Positions 11,123 through 60,809 of a stretch of DNA of 64,000 nt are shown here, piece after piece (the first letter of the stretch is position 1; every line of letters begins with the position of its first letter). Location of the stretch: the NCBI GenBank assembly GCA_964573095.1, contig CAZNIK010000001.1:381159-445158 (forward strand), given 5' to 3'. Both the position numbers and the translations under genes were made by a program. This DNA comes from an uncultured Candidatus Saccharibacteria bacterium (GTDB taxonomy: Bacteria > Patescibacteriota > Saccharimonadia > Saccharimonadales > 2-12-FULL-41-12). Under the pieces are notes generated by a model. The model was not told the DNA's origin. It was given only the letters and a program-made list of their open reading frames with translations, and searched no databases.

Positions 11123-11514
11123 GGGGCTGATTTTAAGCTCGACATTGGACCTTTACAAGTTAGTTTGCAAGCCGCTTGTCAGCGTCATAGACAAACTTTT
11201 TAAATGCAAACGCGTTTAAGAATGTCGCTAGTGCAGTAAAGAGCTTCTTTGCGCCTAGCTACGCATTCGCTGTAGCCTAAGAGCTCGCAGCTGCGAATGG
11301 TGTGACTTCAGATAGCACCATTTCGTATCATATTTTCTGAATAGACTTTTGCATCTGATCTGCCGCATAGTCGAAACTTTTAGATCTGCGAATCAAAGCC
11401 ATTTGGTTGTTTGTTCAGCTTTGATTCTAAGCAAGCGATAAACAACCTAAGCTTGTAGAAGACTAACTACAATAAAGCCGATGGACGCGGGGGCAGAGCC
11501 CGCCAGCTCCACCA
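11123..11514 (+). ncRNA. ssrA: tmRNA (transfer-messenger RNA); 3' end taken as the first CCA
   Basis: 5' GGGGCTGATTTTAAGCTCGAC pairs with 3' CAGCTCC-ACCA, a 7-bp acceptor stem including the G3:U identity pair. Internal tag reading frame is present. T-arm is GCGGG-GGCAGAG-CCCGC. Length of 392 nt is typical. See the finding on the duplicated 3' end. Confidence 0.85.
11206..11280 (+). other. putative tmRNA tag-peptide reading frame (ANAFKNVASAVKSFFAPSYAFAVA*)
   Basis: In-frame GCA resume codon to TAA with a hydrophobic Ala-rich C-terminus (AFAVA), as in proteolysis tags. The resume codon was chosen by eye. Confidence 0.45.
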
Positions 11515-11552: not shown

Positions 11553-11671
11553 TAAAGTTAGTCAAGTGGCTCTGCCCGAGAGGGTGAGGATTGCCAGCGA
11601 CAATCCGAAGAATCATTGCTTGGCCGCCTTGCGCAATTGCCTATGGCAATTTTGTCGCAGGCGCAGAATAG
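11553..11671 (+). repeat. hairpin-rich module between the two ssrA 3' ends (divergent member of the tRNA-linked module family)
   Basis: Contains GGCTCTGCCC, the reverse complement of the upstream T-loop GGGCAGAGCC. Also contains GGGTGAG followed by the hairpin GGATTG-CCAGCGA-CAATCC, and the hairpin AATTGCC-TAT-GGCAATT. The motif order matches the tRNA-Glu module. Confidence 0.6.
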
Positions 11672-11702
11672 TTCGAGCCCGCCAGCTCCACCAATAAAAG
11701 TA
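11672..11702 (+). pseudogene. second (displaced or alternative) ssrA 3' end with a canonical TTCGAG T-loop, plus repeat copy 2
   Basis: TTCGAGCCCGCCAGCTCCACCA (CCA ends at 11693) followed by AATAAAAGTA. A weak terminator CCTAC-TAGCAT-GTGGG-G-TTTTTT follows at 11704..11726. Confidence 0.7.
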
Positions 11703-21300: not shown

Positions 21301-22731
21301 CTACAACACCCGTACCTTTATGGTGTCTGTTGTGCCCATCACGCCGGGGTACTTTCCAGAGGCAGTTACGACTACATCGCCTCTCTTTAATACCTTGCTC
21401 CGATGAAGCCAATTTGTCAGCTTGGTAGCTTGAAGCTTATTGTCGGGGCGAACATAACTTTTTGTGCCGTACACAACTGCAAGTTGCTGCGCCACTCTTG
21501 GGACAGAGGTGGCGGCGATTATCGGTATATTCGGCCTTCGAGACGAAACATGAAGTGCGGTCGCGCCAGATTTAGTTTCGGCCACAATTGCAACCGCATC
21601 AACCGAATTCGCAAGACGAATAATAGCGTTCGATATGGCGCGCGTCTTACCAGGCAGACTATCTATGTCAACAAGTACTGGACCGTGCAAGGCGTGACTC
21701 TGCGTGTAGGTCACTACCCGCTTCATCACAGAGACTGCTTCGATAGGGTATTTCCCGCTCGCCGTCTCGTCACTTAGCATTACCGCATCTGTGCCAAGCA
21801 ATACGGCTGTGGCGACGTCAGACACCTCGGCTCGCGTTGGCTCGGGCGACTCGCTCATACTCGCCAGCATTTGAGTGGCTACGATGGTTGGCTTGGCATG
21901 CTTCATCCCCAATTCAATAATTTTCCTTTGGATAATTGGTACTTCCTCGGGCAGTGTTTCGGTAGCCAAGTCGCCGCGGGCCACCATAAGTCCATCAGAT
22001 TCTTGCGCAATTAACTCTAGGTGGACAACTGCCAGCCTAGTCTCAATCTTGGCAATAATTTTGGCTGATGAACCCAAGTTAACTAACAATCGGCGCAGCT
22101 TTTTTATGTCGTCTGGCGTCTGAACAAAGCTCAGCGCCACATAGTCGATATCATTGGTTGAACCATAGGCAATATCTTCTTGGTCTTTTTTGGTAATAAT
22201 ATCTCCCAAAAAATCTGTATCGGGCACGTTGATCCCTTTGCGCTTTATCAAAATTCCACCGTTCTCGGCGCGCACAAACACCTTTTTGTCTTTTACAGCA
22301 GTTACCGTGGTCCTAATTTTGCCATCATAAAGATAGAGTCGCTCGCCCCGTTTTACCTTTTTACTAAGATCATACTGAATCGGCAGCACACCCGTTCGCT
22401 CATAATCAGCTTCATAGCCAAACGTGAGACTTTGCCCAAGCGCAACATTTACGATCCCTTCAAAATCACCCAGGCGTATTTTGGGACCTTGCAAATCTTG
22501 AATAATTGCGACCGGTTTCCCCGCTGCTTTTGAGGCTTTGCGTATCCACGCTATTTGCTGATCTCGCTCTTTGTGGGTGCCATGACTAAAGTTAAGACGA
22601 AGACCATTCGCCCCAGATTTAATCAGTCGCTCTATCGACTCGTATGAGTTTGTAGAAGGGCCGACCGTGGCTATAATTTTGGTTCTTTTGAACGCTTTAA
22701 GAGGTACGTTTGGTATTTTATGTGTTGACAC
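21301..22731 (-). CDS. pyk: pyruvate kinase
   Basis: TKIIATVGP, NFSHG, MVARGDL and a C-terminal regulatory domain. 476 aa. Confidence 0.9.
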   Translation of the reverse strand: MSTHKIPNVPLKAFKRTKIIATVGPSTNSYESIERLIKSGANGLRLNFSHGTHKERDQQIAWIRKASKAAGKPVAIIQDLQGPKIRLGDFEGIVNVALGQSLTFGYEADYERTGVLPIQYDLSKKVKRGERLYLYDGKIRTTVTAVKDKKVFVRAENGGILIKRKGINVPDTDFLGDIITKKDQEDIAYGSTNDIDYVALSFVQTPDDIKKLRRLLVNLGSSAKIIAKIETRLAVVHLELIAQESDGLMVARGDLATETLPEEVPIIQRKIIELGMKHAKPTIVATQMLASMSESPEPTRAEVSDVATAVLLGTDAVMLSDETASGKYPIEAVSVMKRVVTYTQSHALHGPVLVDIDSLPGKTRAISNAIIRLANSVDAVAIVAETKSGATALHVSSRRPNIPIIAATSVPRVAQQLAVVYGTKSYVRPDNKLQATKLTNWLHRSKVLKRGDVVVTASGKYPGVMGTTDTIKVRVL

Positions 22732-22812
22732 TCGAAATCATCCCACCAGTTGATTTTCTGATTGTATATCTGTCAATAGTGTAACCGTTTATGGCTATTT
22801 GGGGCAACTATT

Positions 22813-23231
22813 CAAAACAACCAACTAAAATACCCCGGGCAGAACCGGGGCGCTTTAGTTGGTGACCTCAAGGGGAATCGACTCACCTTCGGCGAGCCCG
22901 TCGCAACATCTTTCAAAACCAGTTTTGAAGAGTTGACTCCCTTGCGCAGTGCCACCGGCACTGCTCACCCGATTGGGCAATAGGGGTTCGAGTCATAAAA
23001 AAACAACCAACTAAAATACCCCGGGCAGAACCGGGGCACTTTAGTTGGTGACCTCAAGGGGAATCGACTCACCTTCGGCGAGCCCGTCGCAACATCTTTC
23101 AAAACCAGTTTTGAAGAGTTGACTCCCTTGCGCAGTGCCACCGGCACTGCTCACCCGATTGGGCAATAGGGGTTCGAGTCATAAAAAAACAACCAACTAA
23201 AATACCCCGGGCAGAACCGGGGCACTTTAGT
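22813..23231 (-). repeat. tandem array: 2 full 186-bp units plus a partial third, each holding a terminator, a structured module and the last 22 nt of tRNA-Glu
   Basis: The period is exactly 186 bp (CAACCAAC anchors at 22818, 23004 and 23190). The units differ at 1 position (22851 g vs a). The tRNA-Glu 3' fragment TCGATTCCCCTTGAGGTCACCA (minus strand) lies at 22860..22881 and 23046..23067. Terminator copies lie at 22813..22859, 22999..23045 and 23185..23231. Confidence 0.95.
23185..23231 (-). terminator. rho-independent terminator directly after tRNA-Glu CCA
   Basis: Minus strand: ACTAAAGT-GCCCCGG-TTCTGC-CCGGGG-T-ATTTTAGT followed by TGGTTGTTTTTTT. The G:U wobble is compatible with the minus-strand RNA. 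Confidence 0.7.
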
Positions 23232-23306
23232 TGGTGACCTCAAGGGGAATCGAACCCCTATTGCCGGGATGAAAACCCGGTGTCCTAACCGTTAGACGAT
23301 GAGGCC
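23232..23306 (-). tRNA. tRNA-Glu (anticodon TTC), CCA encoded
   Basis: GGCCTCA-TC-GTCT-AACGGTTA-GGAC-A-CCGGG-TTTTCAT-CCCGG-CAAT-AGGGG-TTCGATT-CCCCT-TGAGGTC-ACCA gives a full cloverleaf of 75 nt. Confidence 0.9.
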
Positions 23307-23388
23307 ATACGCTGTGCTTGGTTTGAATTGTTAAGCTTACTGCTGCTATGTGCTAAAACTTGTTATCTAGAACGGTTAAGATGTCCTA

Positions 23389-23475
23389 GTCACGTTCCGC
23401 GACCCCGAAACTTCGCTATTGGCAAACCAGTTGCCATCGGAAGGTTTCCTTGCAAGCTGCCACTGGCAGTTCTCA
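23389..23475. repeat. 87-nt structured core module upstream of tRNA-Glu (about 89% identical to 45572..45658)
   Basis: Hairpins on the + strand are GTCACG-TTC-CGCGAC, TGGCAA-ACCAG-TTGCCA, GGAA-GGT-TTCC and AGCTGCC-ACT-GGCAGTT, followed by TCA. See findings. Confidence 0.85.
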
Positions 23476-23494
23476 CGTTAGACGATGAGGCCAT
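23476..23494 (-). pseudogene. orphan 5' fragment of tRNA-Glu (nt 1-17 plus 2 upstream nt)
   Basis: The minus strand ATGGCCTCATCGTCTAACG is identical to 23290..23308 and lies exactly 186 bp upstream of the intact gene. Confidence 0.9.
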
Positions 23495-23527
23495 TCTCTC
23501 TTGTTTAGCTGGGGTATTTTAGCAAAT

Positions 23528-23568
23528 AAACCCCAGAAGCTCCACCCTTCTGAGGTTTATCGTTTTTG
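23528..23568. terminator. stem-loop/terminator between the surface-protein operon and the tRNA-Glu locus
   Basis: AAACCCCAGAAG-CTCCACC-CTTCTGAGGTTT (12-bp stem with 1 mismatch), followed by a T-run on the + strand. Confidence 0.4.
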
Positions 23569-23676
23569 CTAAATTGTAGTGTTAGTTTTCTTGAGCGGTC
23601 AGTCATTGCTCTCGTAACTAATGAAACATTAGCACATTTTGTGGTTCTTGACTAGACCACTTATCCACAGAACTGT

Positions 23677-36718: not shown

Positions 36719-37483
36719 CTAGGGTTGAAGGGTGCCACCAAAAACTTGCCAGGCAAGAAGCGATTTTGCGACCAGGCTCAAGATAATATACGCGCGCTCG
36801 CCATACAAATAATCCCTCCATGGTCCAACCTTTTTGTACTGAAGCACCATATTTACAGCAAAACAACTAAAGAAAATAAAGATCGACACAAATATCCAAT
36901 AGACAAACGTGGGCGCTCGACTACCATTTTCGGCACCGAGCCACATGTAAAGTGCAATCACAAGCCACGGGATAATCCCGGCAAAACACCCGATGTAATA
37001 GCTCAGCCAATTCGTTGTCTTGGTGGTCTGATTATGGACCTCCATTACGAGTCCCATGAGGTTCATAACTGATGTTAAGGCAAATATCATTAGCAAACTA
37101 CTAAGGTCGTACACGCCCACCAACGCTGCAATCGCAACCATCATCACGCTTGCGGAAATCGAATATTCGACCCACCTTAGCCTATTGATTCCTAGTTTTA
37201 GCTCTTTTTCGTATCGTCGATTATAGCTTGTAGCAATTACAAAATGAAAAATCGCCGAAAGAAAGAAAAACGCTGCAATCAACCACGGTAATTCAACATT
37301 AAACAAAGCTGTGGTGGTTGGCTGAAGTGACTCTGTTTGTTGATTAAAGAAAAGATAGGTGCCAGAAATTGGTATCTCAAATGATTTGCTTATTACAAGC
37401 ACAATCACACCTTGCGCGAGGTGCAAAAACCCCGCAATGATGTTTAGTTGTTTTAATTTTTGCGGTGTTATTTTTCTTGCCAT
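36719..37483 (-). CDS. heliorhodopsin
   Basis: 7-TM protein with close motif-level match to heliorhodopsin 48C12. Matching blocks are IAGFLHLAQ (His), IFHFVIA (His), RWVEYSISASVMM (counter-ion Glu) and GERAYIILSLVAKSLLAWQVFGGTL (retinal Lys). Start set at MARKITPQ (37483). Confidence 0.85.
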   Translation of the reverse strand: MARKITPQKLKQLNIIAGFLHLAQGVIVLVISKSFEIPISGTYLFFNQQTESLQPTTTALFNVELPWLIAAFFFLSAIFHFVIATSYNRRYEKELKLGINRLRWVEYSISASVMMVAIAALVGVYDLSSLLMIFALTSVMNLMGLVMEVHNQTTKTTNWLSYYIGCFAGIIPWLVIALYMWLGAENGSRAPTFVYWIFVSIFIFFSCFAVNMVLQYKKVGPWRDYLYGERAYIILSLVAKSLLAWQVFGGTLQP

Positions 37484-37658
37484 GTTTCGACTATAGCACA
37501 CGTACTTTTCACAATAACAAAAGGACAGCTAGCGAACCATATCCCAGCCGTTTTGGCTTTTTGGTTGTTTACATGTTTATTTTTGCTTTCGTACCTCTAA
37601 TTATACGACTATTGTCAATAGCACTACAAAAAAGTTTGATATTTAGTTGCACAAGTAA

Positions 37659-57304: not shown

Positions 57305-57904
57305 CTACCCCGCTGCCCCTATTAAATACACGACTGAGAAAATGAAGATCCATATTATGTCCAAAAAGTGCCAGAACAGGCTCAGCAGGATAAGTCTCTT
57401 AGTGATTGTGCTGGTTATTCCCTTTTGTAAAATGCTAACAGAGAGTACTGCCATCCACGTCAAGCCAACAGCAATATGAAGCCCGTGGGTTCCAACAAGA
57501 GTGAAATACGACGACAAAAACGCACTGCGCGTCCAACTATTTCCCTCGTCTATGAGATGACGAAATTCGGCGATCTCCATACCCAAGAATGCAAGACCAA
57601 GTAAAAATGTCACGCCCAGCCAGAACAGAACTTGATTTTTATTACGGCGATGAAGCGCCCACATTGCCAGCCCGGCCGTGAAGCTACTGGTAAGCAGTAG
57701 GAGGGTTTCTACAAGCACGTACGGCAGTTCGAAAATCTCCTCGCCGGTTGGACCACCGAAGGTGTTGTTGTGGAGAACAGCGTAGGTCGCAAACAAGCTT
57801 GCAAACACCACACAATCGGTCATTAGGTATACCCAAAAACCAAGTATCGTCTTTGAGTCATCGCTATGTGATGACATGGCGTGGCTATGCAATGATTTGC
57901 TCAT
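57305..57904 (-). CDS. cyoC: cytochrome o ubiquinol oxidase subunit III
   Basis: 199 aa with 5 TM helices and a heme-copper oxidase subunit III pattern ([29 protein letters not shown]). Confidence 0.8.
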
Positions 57905-59889
57905 GGCCGTACCGCCCCGTTTGCCTTTTTTTGCTCAATTTTCCTTACGTCGGCTGCCGGTATTACGTACTCGGTATTCTCGTCGTTTGAACGAATAATA
58001 AAACTCACGATAACACCGAGTAGCGATACAGTGGCAAGCCACGGAATATGCCAAATTGCCGCAAACCCAAACAAAAATGCAAAGCCGGCGATTAGTATTC
58101 CAAAGCCGGTGTTTTTTGGAAGCACGATGTCTTCGTAGGTTTGGTTGGCCGGCGAGTGCGCTTGAGCCTTTTTGGCAACCCAAAACGCATCTCGCTCATG
58201 GACTACTGGTAAATGTGCAAAGTTGTAGACTGGCGCGGGGGATGACGTCGACCACTCAAGGGTCCGGCCGTTCCAGGGATCACCAGTTGTGTCTCGGTTT
58301 TTATTTCGGTCTTTAATACTCACAATGAACTGCAAAATCTGCATCACTACACCTAGGCCAATGATTAGTGCACCTACTCCAGCCACAATAAATAACGACT
58401 GCCAGCCCATTGACGACTCGTAATGATCAAGACGTCTGGTTGCTCCCATAAAACCGAGTGCATACAATGGCAAAAATGCAGTCGCAAAACCAATTATCCA
58501 ACACCAGAACGCATACCGACCAAGCCTTTCGTTGAGCGTAAATCCAAAAACTTTTGGAAACCAATATGAAATACCGGCAAAATACCCAAACACCACGCCA
58601 CCAATAACCATGTTATGGAAATGGGCGACCAAAAACAGGCTGTTGTGGAGCTGGAAGTCTGCAGGCGGCACCGACATCATAACCCCAGTAACTCCGCCAA
58701 TGGTAAACGTCACCACAAACCCCATAAACCACAGCATTGGGGTGTTAAATCTAATTCTGCCTCGATACATTGTAAACAGCCAGTTAAATACCTTCACACC
58801 AGTCGGTATGGCGATTACCATGGTCATAATTCCAAAGAAGGCGTTTACGTTTGCCCCGGCACCCATGGTAAAGAAATGATGCAGCCATACCACGTAAGAC
58901 AGAACTGCTATGGCTCCGATTGCCCACACCATCGACTTATAGCCAAACAGTCGCTTGCCAGAAAAGGTTGCAACCACCTCGGAAAAAATACCAAAGGCCG
59001 GCAAAATTAAAATATATACTTCAGGATGGCCCCACGCCCAGATCAAGTTAACATACATCATTGGATTACCCCCAAAATCAGAAGTAAAGAAATGCATGCC
59101 AAATGTTCTATCAAGTGCCAAAAGAGCCAACGACACTGTTAAGATTGGAAAAGCAAAAATAACAAGTGACATGCTCCCAAGTACGCTCCAACAAAACACG
59201 GGCATCTTCATGAGCGACATGCCTTTGGTGCGCATTTTTAGAATCGTAACTAAAAAGTTGACCCCCGACAGCAAGCTGCCAATGCCGGCAATCTGTACGC
59301 TCCAGATCCAATAGTCAACGCCCGGTCCAGGACTGTAGGCCAGTCCCGAAAGCGGTGGGTATGCCAGCCAGCCGGTAGCTGCAAACTCTCCGCCAATCAC
59401 AAGCGAAATATTTATCAGCACCGCTCCCGCAACATACAACCAAAAACTAACCGAGTTCAAAAACGGGAATGCCACATCCCGTGCGCCGATCTGAAGGGGA
59501 ACTATGAGGTTAATCAGTCCAAACATAAGCCCCATGGCTACGAAAAATATCATTATTGTCCCATGCGCCGTAAACACCTGCTGGAAGGTGTCAGAAGAGA
59601 TGATTCCACTCGAATCTCCCACCGAAGTTGCTTGCTGGACTCTCATCATGAGGGCATCAGCGGCACCGCGAAGCAACATCGCAACAGCAACAATGATATA
59701 CATAACACCTATGCGTTTTGGGTCAAGCGATGTAAGCCACTCCTTCCAAAGCCATTTCCATTTTTTGAAATATGTCAGCACTACCGCTGCTCCAAGTATC
59801 GCCGCCGCCATGGAAACGGTGGCTCCAACCAGCAACTTGTCATCCAGCGGGAAAATATTCGATGAACTGAAGAACTGCAAAAAACTCAT
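57901..59889 (-). CDS. cyoB: cytochrome o ubiquinol oxidase subunit I (heme-copper oxidase)
   Basis: 662 aa with [17 protein letters not shown], the HHFFTMG and VAHFH histidine ligand motifs. Confidence 0.95.
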
Positions 59890-60809
59890 TGCATCATCTC
59901 CGAATAGTGCATCGTCTGTTCGTCGTTTGGATTATCAAGAAACGAAGGGGGTGATAAGAATTTTGTTAACACTTGGTCGTACAAACCCGACTCGCTCGCA
60001 GCAAAGTACATTTGGGGCACATTCTTACTTGGAGCCGACAATTCTTCGTACATACTTTTGTCTAAAACATTGCCCGATTCCCTCACCAAACCCACCCACT
60101 GGTCGAAATCATCTTGAGGCACCGATTCAGCAACAAATTTCATTCCAGAAAACCCCTCGCCACTAATATTTGCAGACGAGCCGGCAAAAGAGCCGGTTTC
60201 TGATGCCCGCAGACTTAAGCGGGTTGACATTCCGCTCATGGCATATATCTGTCCGCTCAATTGAGGAATCCAGAAGGAATTCATTGGTGCGTCAGCAGTT
60301 ATCTCAAAATCTATCGGTCTGTCTTTTGGAATTTGCACATAATTAACCGTTGCAATATTTTCCTCTGGATAGATGAAAAGCCACTTCCACTGCAGCGCTA
60401 CGACCTGCACCTTCATTGCTGCTTTGTCAGACGCGAGAGGCTTAAAAGGATCTAGGTCGTGAGTGCTGTTCCATGTGACGATCGACAAAATAACTATTAA
60501 CAAAATTGGCACACCCCACCACACCGCTTCTAGCGTTCGGTTTCCATCCCACTCGGGAGTGTATCGTGCGCTATGGTTAGATGCTCGAAACTTCCAGATA
60601 ATATAAAAGAACAGTGTAAATACTGGAATAACCACCACGAGCGAAAGACCAGCCGCGAATAAAATTAAGTTGCGCTCTTTTTCGGCAATTTCTCCACTTG
60701 TCTCCAGCAATGGAATACTATGTTTCTGAGAAAGAAACACTACTAGGGTCACCAATCCCACAATGTAAAGCAGCGCGACTCCAACCCCAAAAAACTTTCT
60801 CATACACAC
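59886..60809 (-). CDS. cyoA: cytochrome o ubiquinol oxidase subunit II
   Basis: Two N-terminal TM helices and a quinol-oxidase-type cupredoxin block [23 protein letters not shown]. This aligns with the E. coli CyoA motif and has no CuA Cys/His motif. Confidence 0.85.

Follow-up and report, generated by a model that had tools for sequence, protein, structure and literature searches.

Non-coding modules of about 185 nt accompany tRNA and tmRNA genes of Saccharibacteria, and their structured core is embedded in a truncated spare copy of the gene, beside the intact gene. These modules are lineage-specific insertions (Saccharibacteria/Patescibacteria), and the core matches no described RNA or mobile-element family. 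A genome scan found at least 119 loci, almost all in Saccharibacteria, so the copies are not confined to the present assembly, a restriction that the preliminary description of this DNA had allowed for. As an explanation we tentatively favour a non-autonomous, structure-dependent selfish element that would survive only in spare tRNA copies produced by strand-switch duplication.

Modules in the window

The window is the whole stretch of 64,000 nucleotides that was analysed. The preliminary description had placed four clear core copies in it. A degenerate pattern matched exactly these four, with a chance expectation of 0, and they were also matched by a covariance model, R1, which we built on 121 homologues from other Saccharibacteria genomes. 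In the 696 kb of listed loci R1 gave 127 matches, and 22 of these lay beyond the search pattern and had the same joints. The features of the window are as follows.

45559-45665, minus strand: core match with R1, 100 bits (100.3), module U-Lys
23376-23482, minus strand: core match with R1, 95 bits, module U-Glu
23055-23160, minus strand: core match with R1, 92.6 bits, module D-Glu, proximal unit
22869-22974, minus strand: core match with R1, 92.6 bits, module D-Glu, distal unit
23477..23494, minus strand: U-Glu 5' arm, repeating tRNA-Glu nt 1-16 and 2 nt of the leader (direct repeat D3 and mapping)
23389..23476, minus strand: U-Glu core, 88 nt (5'-GUGA, P1, GCAAGG, P2, CGGGG, P0); by the 3-nt rule it replaces GGT (D-loop G18 G19 U20) of the tRNA copy
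23382-23388, minus strand: U-Glu 3' arm, tRNA nt 20-26, within 23366..23388 and followed by a turn
23366-23381, minus strand: U-Glu antisense copy of about tRNA nt 24-10, pairing with both arms (local alignments)
23307..23365, minus strand: spacer X separating the U-Glu module from the intact tRNA-Glu (sequence reading)
23232..23306, minus strand: intact tRNA-Glu(UUC)
23192..23235, minus strand: terminator palindrome including the ACCA end of tRNA-Glu, loop centre 23213.5
23162-23180, minus strand: antisense copy of tRNA-Glu nt 60-42 in the D-Glu proximal unit (unit 23155..23180; inverted pair I5, 95% complementary)
23155-23161, minus strand: D-Glu proximal short sense arm, about nt 44-50
23068..23154, minus strand: D-Glu proximal core, 87 nt, replacing GGT (G52 G53 T54) of the spare copy's T arm
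23046..23067, minus strand: D-Glu proximal 3' fragment, tRNA-Glu T55 to CCA, 22 nt (direct repeat D2)
22814..22999, minus strand: D-Glu distal unit, a tandem copy (direct repeat D1, 186 nt, 99% identity)
22976-22994, minus strand: antisense piece of the distal unit
22969-22975, minus strand: arm of the distal unit
22882-22968, minus strand: core of the distal unit
22860-22881, minus strand: fragment of the distal unit
22820-22863, minus strand: terminator copy of the distal unit
45660..45712, minus strand: U-Lys 5' copy of tRNA-Lys nt 1-53
45572..45659, minus strand: U-Lys core, 88 nt, replacing GTT (G53 T54 T55)
45565-45571, minus strand: U-Lys 3' arm, tRNA nt 56-62, then a loop at 45559-45564 (segment 45526..45571)
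45546-45558, minus strand: U-Lys antisense copy of about nt 63-50, then a 20-nt leader at 45526-45545
45449..45525, minus strand: intact tRNA-Lys(CUU)
45262..45448, minus strand: D-Lys module of a sister family, period 186; R1 matches its P1 only
45421-45440, minus strand: D-Lys terminator; the module also contains an antisense T-arm piece, a P1-like hairpin (45345-45361) and other hairpins
45262-45283, minus strand: D-Lys 3' fragment
11123..11514, plus strand: intact tmRNA (ssrA), Rfam match of 80 bits
11568..11693, plus strand: ssrA downstream module, R1 17 bits, E = 0.006
11568-11577, plus strand: antisense piece of the ssrA module
11584-11671, plus strand: divergent core of the ssrA module, starting GUGAGG, with a P1 variant
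11672-11693, plus strand: ssrA 3' fragment ending in CCA

The loop centre of the tRNA-Glu terminator, 23213.5, is also the centre about which the 3' part of tRNA-Glu and its antisense copy are mirrored (inverted pairs I5 and I7). No module was present at four of the six tRNAs of the window, and the same tRNAs bear one in other species.

Two divergent copies had also been claimed. That at ssrA is indeed related to the core, only weakly so, as its R1 score shows; that at 45285-45362 shares just the P1 hairpin and is a member of a sister family, whose layout is the same. The repeat spacings given earlier (186/186/186 nt at tRNA-Glu, 187/186 nt at tRNA-Lys and 179 nt at ssrA) are right, but a strict quantum of 186 nt is ruled out. 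That is, the period is constrained at about 184 nt across genomes and ranges from 172 to 199 nt. Taken as a whole, the earlier observations were confirmed in part, and the interpretation put on them was likewise partly supported. The location of the core within a truncated tRNA copy with 3 nt replaced, and the inverted tRNA copy found in every module, had escaped notice.

Consensus promoter scans showed a sole promoter-like site for U-Glu, upstream of the tRNA fragment (23602->23573), and one for U-Lys upstream of the 5' copy (45787->45759). The upstream modules have the only promoter-like site on one side and the tRNA on the other, and the gap from the U-Lys module to tRNA-Lys is the 20-nt leader. 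From these scans alone the upstream copies are predicted to be transcribed in the pre-tRNA leader.

Fold of the core

The core consists of 88 nt and forms three hairpins, P1, a long P2 and P0, with the conserved joints G-UGA, GCAAGG and CGGG. The three hairpins are supported by covariation. In the R1 alignment 95.0% of the pairing cells were paired, compared with 72.0% after shuffling and no more than 47% in slid controls, and changes on both sides occurred at 22 of the 25 pairs. When mutual information was calculated, the top covarying column pairs all fell within the three hairpins or extended them, and the core alignment gave no pseudoknot or tertiary covariation. In the fold computed for U-Lys the arms were paired with the antisense piece around a five-way junction.

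The strand that folds can be told from the wobble pairs. At paired positions, read on the tRNA-sense strand, G·U was found 175 times and A·C 26 times. P0 holds a conserved G·U pair (100 of 124 sequences), and when it was left out the counts were still 75 against 26 (p = 1e-6). The excess of G·U over A·C on the tRNA-sense strand shows that this is the strand that folds. Two core SNPs between close strains (A·C to A:U and G:C to G·U) each keep the pair in that strand.

These results bear on the structural claims of the preliminary description. Its compensatory base changes became much stronger when homologues were added, and the pairing and wobble statistics strongly support the selection on structure that it proposed. 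The short hairpin which it named P3 (GGAA-GGT-TTCC) is instead the far strand of the long P2 helix, enclosing what it had called P2, and its placing of the fold on the strand antisense to the RNA genes is contradicted by the wobble statistics. For the same reason its suggestion of a structured RNA antisense to tRNAs fails, while co-transcription with tRNAs fits the promoter-like sites of the upstream copies. Its statement that there is no hammerhead core agrees with a permissive Rfam scan and with our reading of the alignments.

Against Rfam 15 at the gathering threshold, only tRNA and tmRNA reached threshold in the window, with nothing on the cores. At E <= 10, nothing overlapped the cores in 22700-23600, ribozyme and intron families included, and two other module loci likewise gave no core match. 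The core pattern was absent from IMG/VR, and when the entire U-Lys unit was compared by blastn with phages and plasmids, only the tRNA-Lys part matched. Pattern scans of metagenome contigs for empty sites or relatives gave no match. Our full-text literature search returned only the group I and II introns in tRNA anticodon loops of Patescibacteria, in a paper that does not describe the modules (PMC13011429).

Layout of the modules across genomes

In nearly all cases the core lies 70-90 nt past the tRNA 3' end or 95-150 nt before the 5' end, on the tRNA strand. The targets comprise 23 tRNA species plus tmRNA. Exactly 3 nt of the spare copy were missing in 68 of 77 mappable modules, and the missing triplets all began with G (GGT 32, GTT 25, GCG 5, others 6). 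The replaced GNN sites lie in the T loop, D loop, variable loop, anticodon loop and 3' end of the D stem. Opposite the core, NNC is left unpaired, and its middle base varies.

The spare copy extends to the natural end of the gene, which is +1 in upstream modules and CCA in downstream modules; the downstream fragments measure 21-22 nt, from the T loop to CCA. At one locus (L094) the identity extends exactly to the last T of the terminator. Although the fragments reach the gene ends, only 6-9 nt of them pair.

The spare copy is separated from the intact gene by an antisense copy of the same tRNA segment, which is able to pair with both arms. In many downstream modules this antisense copy begins at tRNA position 77 and continues back to about 44; in 25 of 33 cases its centre was no more than 1.5 nt from that of the terminator loop. 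That is, the 3' part of the tRNA and the antisense copy are mirrored about the terminator loop, the order being sense, antisense, sense, and the third copy is then followed by a terminator resembling a diverged duplicate. The downstream modules thus show the features of a tandem inversion duplication, the upstream modules only in part. In upstream modules d + j was 84-111 while j was 16-66.

Around 181 tRNA genes we counted 75 downstream and 46 upstream fragment repeats, and triplications free of an insert numbered only 1-2 of the 75. At least three core families, unrelated or remotely related, share the same layout.

The median core identity was 0.76 between tRNAs of one genome and 0.62 between genomes, a likeness that could stem from gene conversion alone. 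At orthologous sites the core alignment showed different P2 types or core subfamilies. The D-Glu module has two units in the window and one in the close relative L128, where the distal unit is missing; this difference could reflect a collapsed assembly, but a flipped terminator loop argues for a real one. Two loci also have module copies on either side of a small island: in L031 it measures 2.6 kb and includes an S24/LexA-like gene, and in L061 it measures 1.5 kb and consists of two genes for membrane proteins.

No module contained an open reading frame beyond spurious length. A Pfam scan of 44 window ORFs and 6 island ORFs showed no mobility genes; the matches were to housekeeping genes, membrane proteins and an S24 peptidase. 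The 44 from the window included no recombinase, transposase, integrase or reverse transcriptase. The recombinase, HUH or IS110-type gene whose linkage the preliminary description had proposed to look for was absent from the window ORFs scanned. Neither the L031 and L061 islands nor the surroundings of modules in the loci inspected held an integrase. We also sought an autonomous version in cores far from tRNAs (L031, L039, L061 and L086) and met islands or decayed copies, with no enzyme.

Origin of the modules and comparison with known systems

Of the three candidates in the preliminary description, a non-autonomous miniature element targeting tRNAs fits best, in view of the missing ORF, the 23 tRNA species plus tmRNA, the within-genome likeness and the change in copy number. 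In the selfish-element reading that we tentatively favour, the core would be copied between loci, through gene conversion or with the help of an unlinked enzyme, and would enter single-stranded tRNA sequence of the sense strand beside a G. Insertion into a sole gene copy would be lethal, and we propose that insertions are for this reason retained only in dispensable partial copies. Such copies might arise by strand-switch ("snap-back") duplication at natural hairpins such as the terminator and the anticodon arm, in the manner of tandem inversion duplications. Together with the core, the arms and the antisense piece would close a multi-way junction, which in a pre-tRNA leader may sequester the tRNA fragment and so spare the folding of the real tRNA; the same closed fold may also be the form recognised for copying. 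Units would be gained and lost by unequal exchange between fragment and gene.

Several points tell against this account. The searches, in cis and elsewhere, brought up no candidate enzyme, and we know of no transposition, recombination or splicing chemistry in which a fixed 3 nt are lost. The duplication model does not account for the period of about 184 nt seen in upstream modules. Since insert-free triplications are almost absent, duplication and insertion may be one coupled event and not two. A host function would also be compatible with the long retention at up to about 40% of the sampled tRNA genes, given a genome size of about 1 Mb.

Such a function is the substance of the strongest rival, which we nevertheless consider unlikely: the module would be a cis-acting structured host RNA that controls or protects tRNA maturation from the pre-tRNA leader or trailer, and the fragments would be leftovers of its origin. 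As possible variants, a protein- or ligand-binding junction might have helices that compete with the antisense piece for the tRNA, or the module might act as an insulator and terminator extension. Preservation of the fold by compensatory changes throughout an entire class with streamlined genomes speaks for a host RNA, as do the conserved junction nucleotides and P0 wobble (100/124), the identity of the folding strand with the transcribed tRNA strand, and the antisense piece that matches the local tRNA. By the promoter scans the upstream modules would necessarily be co-transcribed with the tRNA, and downstream the tRNA 3' part, terminator and antisense copy make one long hairpin. However, a host RNA does not sit well with the patchy presence (four of six window tRNAs without a module), with fragments that reach the gene ends when just 6-9 nt pair, or with downstream modules placed behind the terminator. 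Core subfamilies swapped at orthologous sites and homogenised within genomes, tandem copies with changing copy number, and three or more unrelated or remotely related core families in one layout also weigh against it.

We regard as rather improbable a bolder proposal, in which the core is a new self-inserting small RNA or ssDNA that would find exposed tRNA and tmRNA loops through base pairing of its tRNA-derived arms and antisense guide, excise 3 nt beside a G and insert itself there. Catalysis would be due either to the RNA or to an unlinked enzyme, and the event would be fixed in DNA together with a gene-restoring snap-back copy.

A still slimmer chance is given to att-like "landing pads", or minimal remnants of integrative elements, at tRNA and tmRNA genes, served by a recombinase encoded elsewhere that perhaps acts on a folded single strand, as with integron attC or CTX-phage attP. 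The layout is classic for such sites: an intact tRNA or tmRNA gene with a direct repeat of 21-22 nt from T loop to CCA. In addition, tmRNA is among the targets, modules flank islands (L031 2.6 kb, L061 1.5 kb), and the structure is strand-specific with an inverted target copy nearby, as in CTX attP. Yet no integrase was seen in the islands, the scanned window ORFs or beside the inspected modules, the core was absent from the viral, phage and plasmid collections, and the consensus is without attC R/L boxes. The 5' fragments and five tRNA positions are unlike any single protein-recognised att site, and a single size of about 185 nt is not to be expected of over 100 random remnants.

Quite improbable in our judgement is an RNA-level mobile element, that is, a new small ribozyme or ribonucleoprotein substrate that would enter exposed tRNA loops beside a G and then pass into DNA by reverse transcription and recombination, with the arms and antisense piece serving as guide or substrate mimic. 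Its targets are loops and hinges of the folded tRNA where only the G is required, the fragments end at +1, CCA or the terminator end (the last T in L094), the core is predicted to be transcribed in the folding strand, and the arrangement of arm, core and arm facing a continuous complementary strand recalls trans-acting small ribozymes. An antisense copy mirrored at the terminator loop would be expected from self-primed reverse transcription of a terminated pre-tRNA, but the palindrome is equally explained by snap-back in DNA replication. The CCA is encoded in the genes, and the fragments are therefore no proof of an RNA origin. Against such an element stand the lack of any ribozyme or intron family match even at E = 10, of pseudoknot or tertiary covariation, of hammerhead, group I or group II signatures, and of a reverse transcriptase among the scanned window ORFs.

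Saccharibacteria have genomes of about 1 Mb with little spare DNA, yet a large share of the sampled tRNA genes bear modules, all built on the one conserved architecture. If the modules are selfish, they represent a new way to inhabit essential genes without killing the host, and a recurrent natural snap-back triplication; if they are active as RNA, a major uncultivated lineage has an abundant undescribed class of structured RNA that is linked with tRNA expression. In practice, the modules break short-read assemblies at tRNA genes, their partial tRNA copies can mislead tRNA annotation, and they are a specific marker for Saccharibacteria DNA.

Among known systems, MITEs, REP/BIME with RAYT, the Correia elements of Neisseria, pneumococcal BOX/RUP and PATEs resemble the modules in being short, ORF-less, present in many copies per genome, furnished with conserved hairpins, homogenised within the genome and presumably mobilised in trans; the strand-specific folding resembles IS200/IS605 ends. 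In contrast to these elements, the modules have no terminal inverted repeats or target-site duplication, lose 3 target nt, and carry cores only in partial stable-RNA gene copies, always with an inverted target copy. We know of no cognate transposase for them. A DDE-type MITE was rejected since the core ends (GUGAG... / ...GUGAC/GAG/AGG) are not inverted repeats and the target loses 3 nt without duplication. Compared with IS200/IS605 (PATE) elements, hairpins at both ends and strand-specific folding were found, together with a 5' flank without a fixed motif, a variable 3' end, the 3-nt loss and no TnpA among the scanned window ORFs.

Integrative elements that target tRNA and tmRNA genes, such as those with P4-type tyrosine integrases, also keep the gene intact, carry a direct repeat from T loop to CCA, use tmRNA and may leave small islands between repeats; their sublocation classes were reportedly set out by Williams in 2002. 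The modules share the identity block (21-22 nt) but measure about 185 nt, had no integrase in the units, the L031/L061 islands or the scanned window ORFs, include 5' fragments and use D-loop, variable-loop and anticodon-loop positions. The 5'-side modules misfit such elements. They also have a covarying structured core and an antisense target copy mirrored at the terminator. Integron attC was dismissed because the consensus has no R''/L''-L'/R' boxes and no integrase was found among the scanned window ORFs.

Archaeal tRNA genes carry bulge-helix-bulge introns at non-canonical positions, for which intron transposition has been proposed. Like these and the Patescibacteria group I/II introns, the modules are homologous inserts at several tRNA positions, including the D and T loops, on the same strand and predicted to be co-transcribed. 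Here, however, the interrupted copy is truncated with an intact gene alongside, and there is no bulge-helix-bulge geometry or group I/II core. Because the interrupted copy is truncated and 3 nt short, splicing could not restore the tRNA. A group I/II intron is excluded by the 88-nt core, the missing Rfam intron match and these same defects of the copies, and split-tRNA or trans-splicing by the fact that U-Glu nt 1-16 and D-Glu nt 44-75 cannot form a tRNA.

Ribozymes and retrons were considered as well. A hammerhead is ruled out by the joints, which are G-UGA (paired within P1), GCAAGG and CGGG and not CUGANGA...GAAA; HDV-like, twister and other pseudoknotted ribozymes by covarying pairs confined to the three hairpins or their extensions; and a retron-like element (closing stem, G, hairpins) by the many copies with no adjacent reverse transcriptase.

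The bridge/seek RNAs of IS110/IS1111 and the omega RNAs of TnpB/IscB similarly place a structured non-coding part beside a stretch complementary to the insertion flanks. The modules have no IS110, TnpB or IscB gene, and the complement is a 15-35-nt target copy outside the core, which changes side between upstream and downstream modules, unlike two short guide loops or a terminal guide. Accordingly, an IS110/IS1111 bridge-RNA element was rejected (no DEDD recombinase gene in or near the inspected modules, plain hairpins without internal guide loops), as was a TnpB/omega-RNA-like scaffold on the antisense strand ending in TCAC plus a guide, since the sense strand folds and the "guide" switches sides.

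Tandem inversion duplications, reportedly described by Kugelberg, Roth and co-workers in 2010, and the quasi-palindrome template switching said to follow the Ripley/Lovett models, are sporadic, unstable rearrangements. The modules share with tandem inversion duplications the sense, antisense and sense triplication and the junctions at natural hairpins (terminator loop, anticodon arm). In contrast to them, the modules are recurrent, being present in over 100 species and next to dozens of tRNA genes, with the structured insert nearly always in the outer copy.

Core copies in the window and in other genomes

The cores of the window and the genes that they adjoin are listed below. The bit scores come from R1, a covariance model built from 121 distinct cores, and a module is a core together with its tRNA-derived arms and antisense tRNA piece.

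Intact genes, core copies and the sister-family module in the window
11123-11514, plus strand: tmRNA, intact
11578-11685, plus strand: ssrA core copy, R1 17 bits, E = 0.006
22869-22974, minus strand: core copy, R1 92.6 bits
23055-23160, minus strand: core copy, R1 92.6 bits
23232-23306, minus strand: tRNA-Glu(UUC), intact
23376-23482, minus strand: core copy, R1 95.1 bits
45262-45448, minus strand: sister-family module
45345-45361: single hairpin matched by R1
45449-45525, minus strand: tRNA-Lys(CUU), intact
45559-45665, minus strand: core copy, R1 100.3 bits

A degenerate pattern made from the core of the preliminary description matched exactly the four copies that it called clear, where none was expected by chance. 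Of its two divergent copies, the one at ssrA was recovered, albeit weakly, and in the region 45285-45362 R1 matched one hairpin only. The claimed spacings were borne out, that is, 186 nt at tRNA-Glu, 187 and 186 nt at tRNA-Lys and 179 nt at ssrA. With a repeat finder, a 186-nt unit was found twice at 99% identity (22814-22999 and 23000-23185), a 68-nt block consisting of the tRNA-Glu 3' fragment and the terminator was found three times at 186-nt spacing, and 24 nt from the tRNA-Glu 5' end were found again 186 nt upstream. No Rfam family matched the cores, even at E = 10.

The same pattern, applied to one genome per species, gave at least 119 loci, so that the copies are not confined to one assembly; nearly all of the pattern matches listed were Saccharibacteria or Saccharimonadales MAGs. 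R1 detected 127 copies in 100 of the loci fetched from these other genomes, and 22 of them lay outside the search pattern. Since these 22 copies retain GGUGAGAA, CGGG and either GCAAGG or a version of it with a compensating base pair, and since their P1 stem covaries, the conservation of the core is not an artefact of the pattern. The core was absent from the IMG/VR, GenBank phage and PLSDB plasmid collections, and no description of the modules was found in Rfam 15 or the searchable literature.

Near 181 tRNA genes of the fetched loci, 75 fragment repeats were downstream and 46 upstream. Other structured inserts occupied 26 of the 75 downstream repeats with the layout unchanged. Such a sister family includes the window module downstream of tRNA-Lys and modules of L028, L046, L103 and L107; its layout and period are those of the core family and its core is different, with the order antisense T-arm piece, TGCC-NGT-GGCA hairpin, CGAACCTTGCC ... 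GGCAAGG and 3' fragment. A third module family (GCGCAGTGCAGCGAAATGCTGG...) was present in L041, L058, L064 and L107.

Fold of the core and anatomy of the modules

RNAalifold and pair counting supported three hairpins, namely P1, directly 3' of a conserved G-UGA, a long segmented P2, and P0. Paired cells amounted to 95.0%, compared with 72.0% after shuffling and no more than 47% with slid partners, and both-sided changes occurred in 22 of the 25 pairs; the compensatory changes first noticed in the window are thus confirmed across homologues. Mutual information revealed only pairs that extend these hairpins, and no pseudoknot. The segment previously taken as a separate hairpin and called P3 belongs to P2, as its far strand. 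The strand folded earlier was also the wrong one: the tRNA-sense strand is favored by its excess of G·U over A·C (175 vs 26, or 75 vs 26 without the conserved P0 wobble, p = 1e-6). The element folds as RNA co-transcribed with the tRNA, or as the same-sense DNA strand when single-stranded. Two cores stand head to tail in L070 (7657-7836) and L035 (242-420), with the P1 end of one core standing where P0 of its neighbour would be. This arrangement suggests that it matters little which hairpin serves as P0.

Nearly all cores adjoin a tRNA on the same strand. In downstream (D) modules the core lies 70-90 nt past the tRNA 3' end; in upstream (U) modules the tRNA 5' end is 95-150 nt from the pattern match within the core. 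Reading in tRNA sense, the D order is intact tRNA, terminator, antisense piece, short turn, sense piece to tRNA position j, core, j+4 to CCA, and second terminator, and the U order is sense +1 to j, core, short sense piece from j+4, turn, antisense piece, spacer, and intact tRNA. In 68 of the 77 modules with mappable arms the core takes the place of precisely 3 nt in the tRNA copy, and the replaced triplets all begin with G (GGT 32, GTT 25, GCG 5, others 6). The insertion sites are the T loop (52-55), the D loop (G18 G19 U20), the variable loop, the anticodon loop (37-39) and the 3' end of the D stem. The targets comprise 23 tRNA species, tmRNA and, in two other genomes, a conserved terminator-like hairpin with the loop AGGGGGTGGGCACCG (L042 418-432; L044 6692-6706), whose intact copy is adjoined by a partial one that the core interrupts; this hairpin had no Rfam match, and the window has none. 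At one stretch of the window ARAGORN called a tRNA-Arg(TCG) on each strand (47676-47751 plus, 47690-47766 minus), and Rfam backed the minus-strand gene only; this tRNA is without a module here and has one in other species (L016, L026, L110 and L119).

Modules contain no ORF, and their fragments end where genes naturally end. Identity of U fragments with the intact gene extends just 0-3 nt (maximum 8) upstream of +1; D fragments are 21-22 nt long, and only in tandem arrays or young copies does identity go beyond CCA; in L094 it extends precisely as far as the final T of the terminator.

The antisense piece pairs with both core-flanking arms (6-9 bp each), leaving 2-3 nt opposite the core unpaired, so that the fold of the whole unit is a closed multi-way junction. 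In D modules this piece is often much longer and covers tRNA positions 77 to about 44 in reverse. It mirrors the tRNA 3' part around the terminator-hairpin loop. D modules therefore contain the tRNA 3' third three times, in the order sense, antisense, sense, and the core sits in the outer copy. Of 33 modules, 25 have the centers of the mirror and of the loop no more than 1.5 nt apart, and 31 no more than 3 nt apart; in the window, the inverted pairs 23162-23180/23247-23265 and 23192-23210/23217-23235 share the center 23213.5. In some U modules (L066, L053, L047) the turning point is the natural anticodon arm, and the antisense copy reaches nearly to the tRNA 5' end. We take the sense/antisense/sense layout as the mark that strand switching at hairpins (tandem inversion duplication) would leave, and D modules have this layout. 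Terminators of module-bearing loci are long palindromes of up to about 19 bp (23192-23235, 23006-23049 and 22820-22863 in the window, and many other loci), in which the ACCA end of the tRNA itself and an A-tract pair with a T-tract and TGGT.

Repeat period and change between genomes

The period is constrained rather than quantised: across the fetched loci its values cluster at 172-199 nt, with second copies at about twice the distance. The D period follows from geometry, since it equals 2 x (turn at about position 44 to terminator loop) + 85. Geometry does not account for the U period: over j values of 16 to 66, spacer + j stays at 84-111, the spacer shrinking as j grows. Repeats with almost no insert were rare among the 75 downstream.

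Median core identity was 0.76 between tRNAs of one genome and 0.62 between genomes, and P2 types differ at orthologous sites of related species. In the near-identical relative GCA_041907465.1 (contig JAYRHD010000017.1), the tRNA-Lys locus is identical to that of the window. At the tRNA-Glu locus (L128 4148-4906 set against window 22732-23676), the relative has one D unit and the window two, its first terminator hairpin has the loop in flipped orientation (gcagaa vs ttctgc, the reverse complement), and its U core differs by two SNPs, both C/T at paired positions, with sense-strand pairing kept. Same-species short-read contigs (L121-L127, L129-L137) end inside tRNA-Lys itself or inside modules of tRNA-Glu. 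Module repeats break assemblies, and they may be collapsed in MAGs.

Possible nature of the modules and comparison with known systems

In the best-supported reading, to which we give slightly less than even chances, the modules are a non-autonomous selfish element living in dispensable truncated tRNA copies. Copying would carry the core from one locus to another, into sense-strand tRNA sequence beside a G, and the core would persist only in such dispensable copies, putative products of snap-back duplication. The fold of arms, antisense piece and three hairpins would keep the transcribed fragment inert, and the same fold may be the form that is copied. The analysis shows directly the anatomy, which strand folds, the distribution, the within-genome similarity of cores and the difference in copy number; how the core inserts, whether duplication or insertion comes first, and any enzyme that takes part are what we infer. 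The fixed 3-nt loss, the constant U-module period and the rarity of insert-free triplications count against the selfish-element reading, and this rarity suggests that duplication and insertion are one coupled event.

A host cis-acting RNA, as a rival reading, is rather unlikely.

As to transcription, consensus scans placed promoter-like sites upstream of the U fragments (23602 to 23573, and 45787 to 45759 with an extended -10), and the gap between the U module and tRNA-Lys is just 20 nt; U modules should therefore belong to the pre-tRNA leader. D modules are behind a terminator.

It is quite improbable that the modules are recombination landing pads served by an unlinked recombinase. Gene islands flanked by module copies for one tRNA occur in L031 (2815-5790, 2.8 kb apart; an S24/LexA-like protein and unknown ORFs) and L061 (6236-7851, 1.5 kb apart; two small membrane proteins), and neither island contains a recombinase. 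In the 44 window ORFs scanned, all families recognized were housekeeping ones (ATP synthase, MetRS, glycolysis enzymes, PcrA/UvrD, heliorhodopsin, haem-copper oxidase), with no transposase, integrase or reverse transcriptase among them. The heliorhodopsin gene (36719-37501, minus) and the COX1/COX2-type haem-copper oxidase (57901-60809, minus) stand in an otherwise small-Saccharibacteria-like genome. We give little credence to an RNA-level self-inserting element or ribozyme.

Like MITE/REP-type repeats, the modules are small, structured, non-coding and homogenised, but they have neither terminal inverted repeats nor target duplication. They share with tRNA-targeting islands the intact gene with a 3'-fragment repeat, and tmRNA as a further target, but no integrase was found in the modules, in the L031 and L061 gene islands or among the scanned window ORFs. 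As in tRNA introns, the insert lies within tRNA loops at several positions, whereas the modules have no intron core and their exons are not restorable. The module family falls outside the definitions of MITE/REP-type repeats and tRNA introns, and probably outside that of tRNA-targeting islands.
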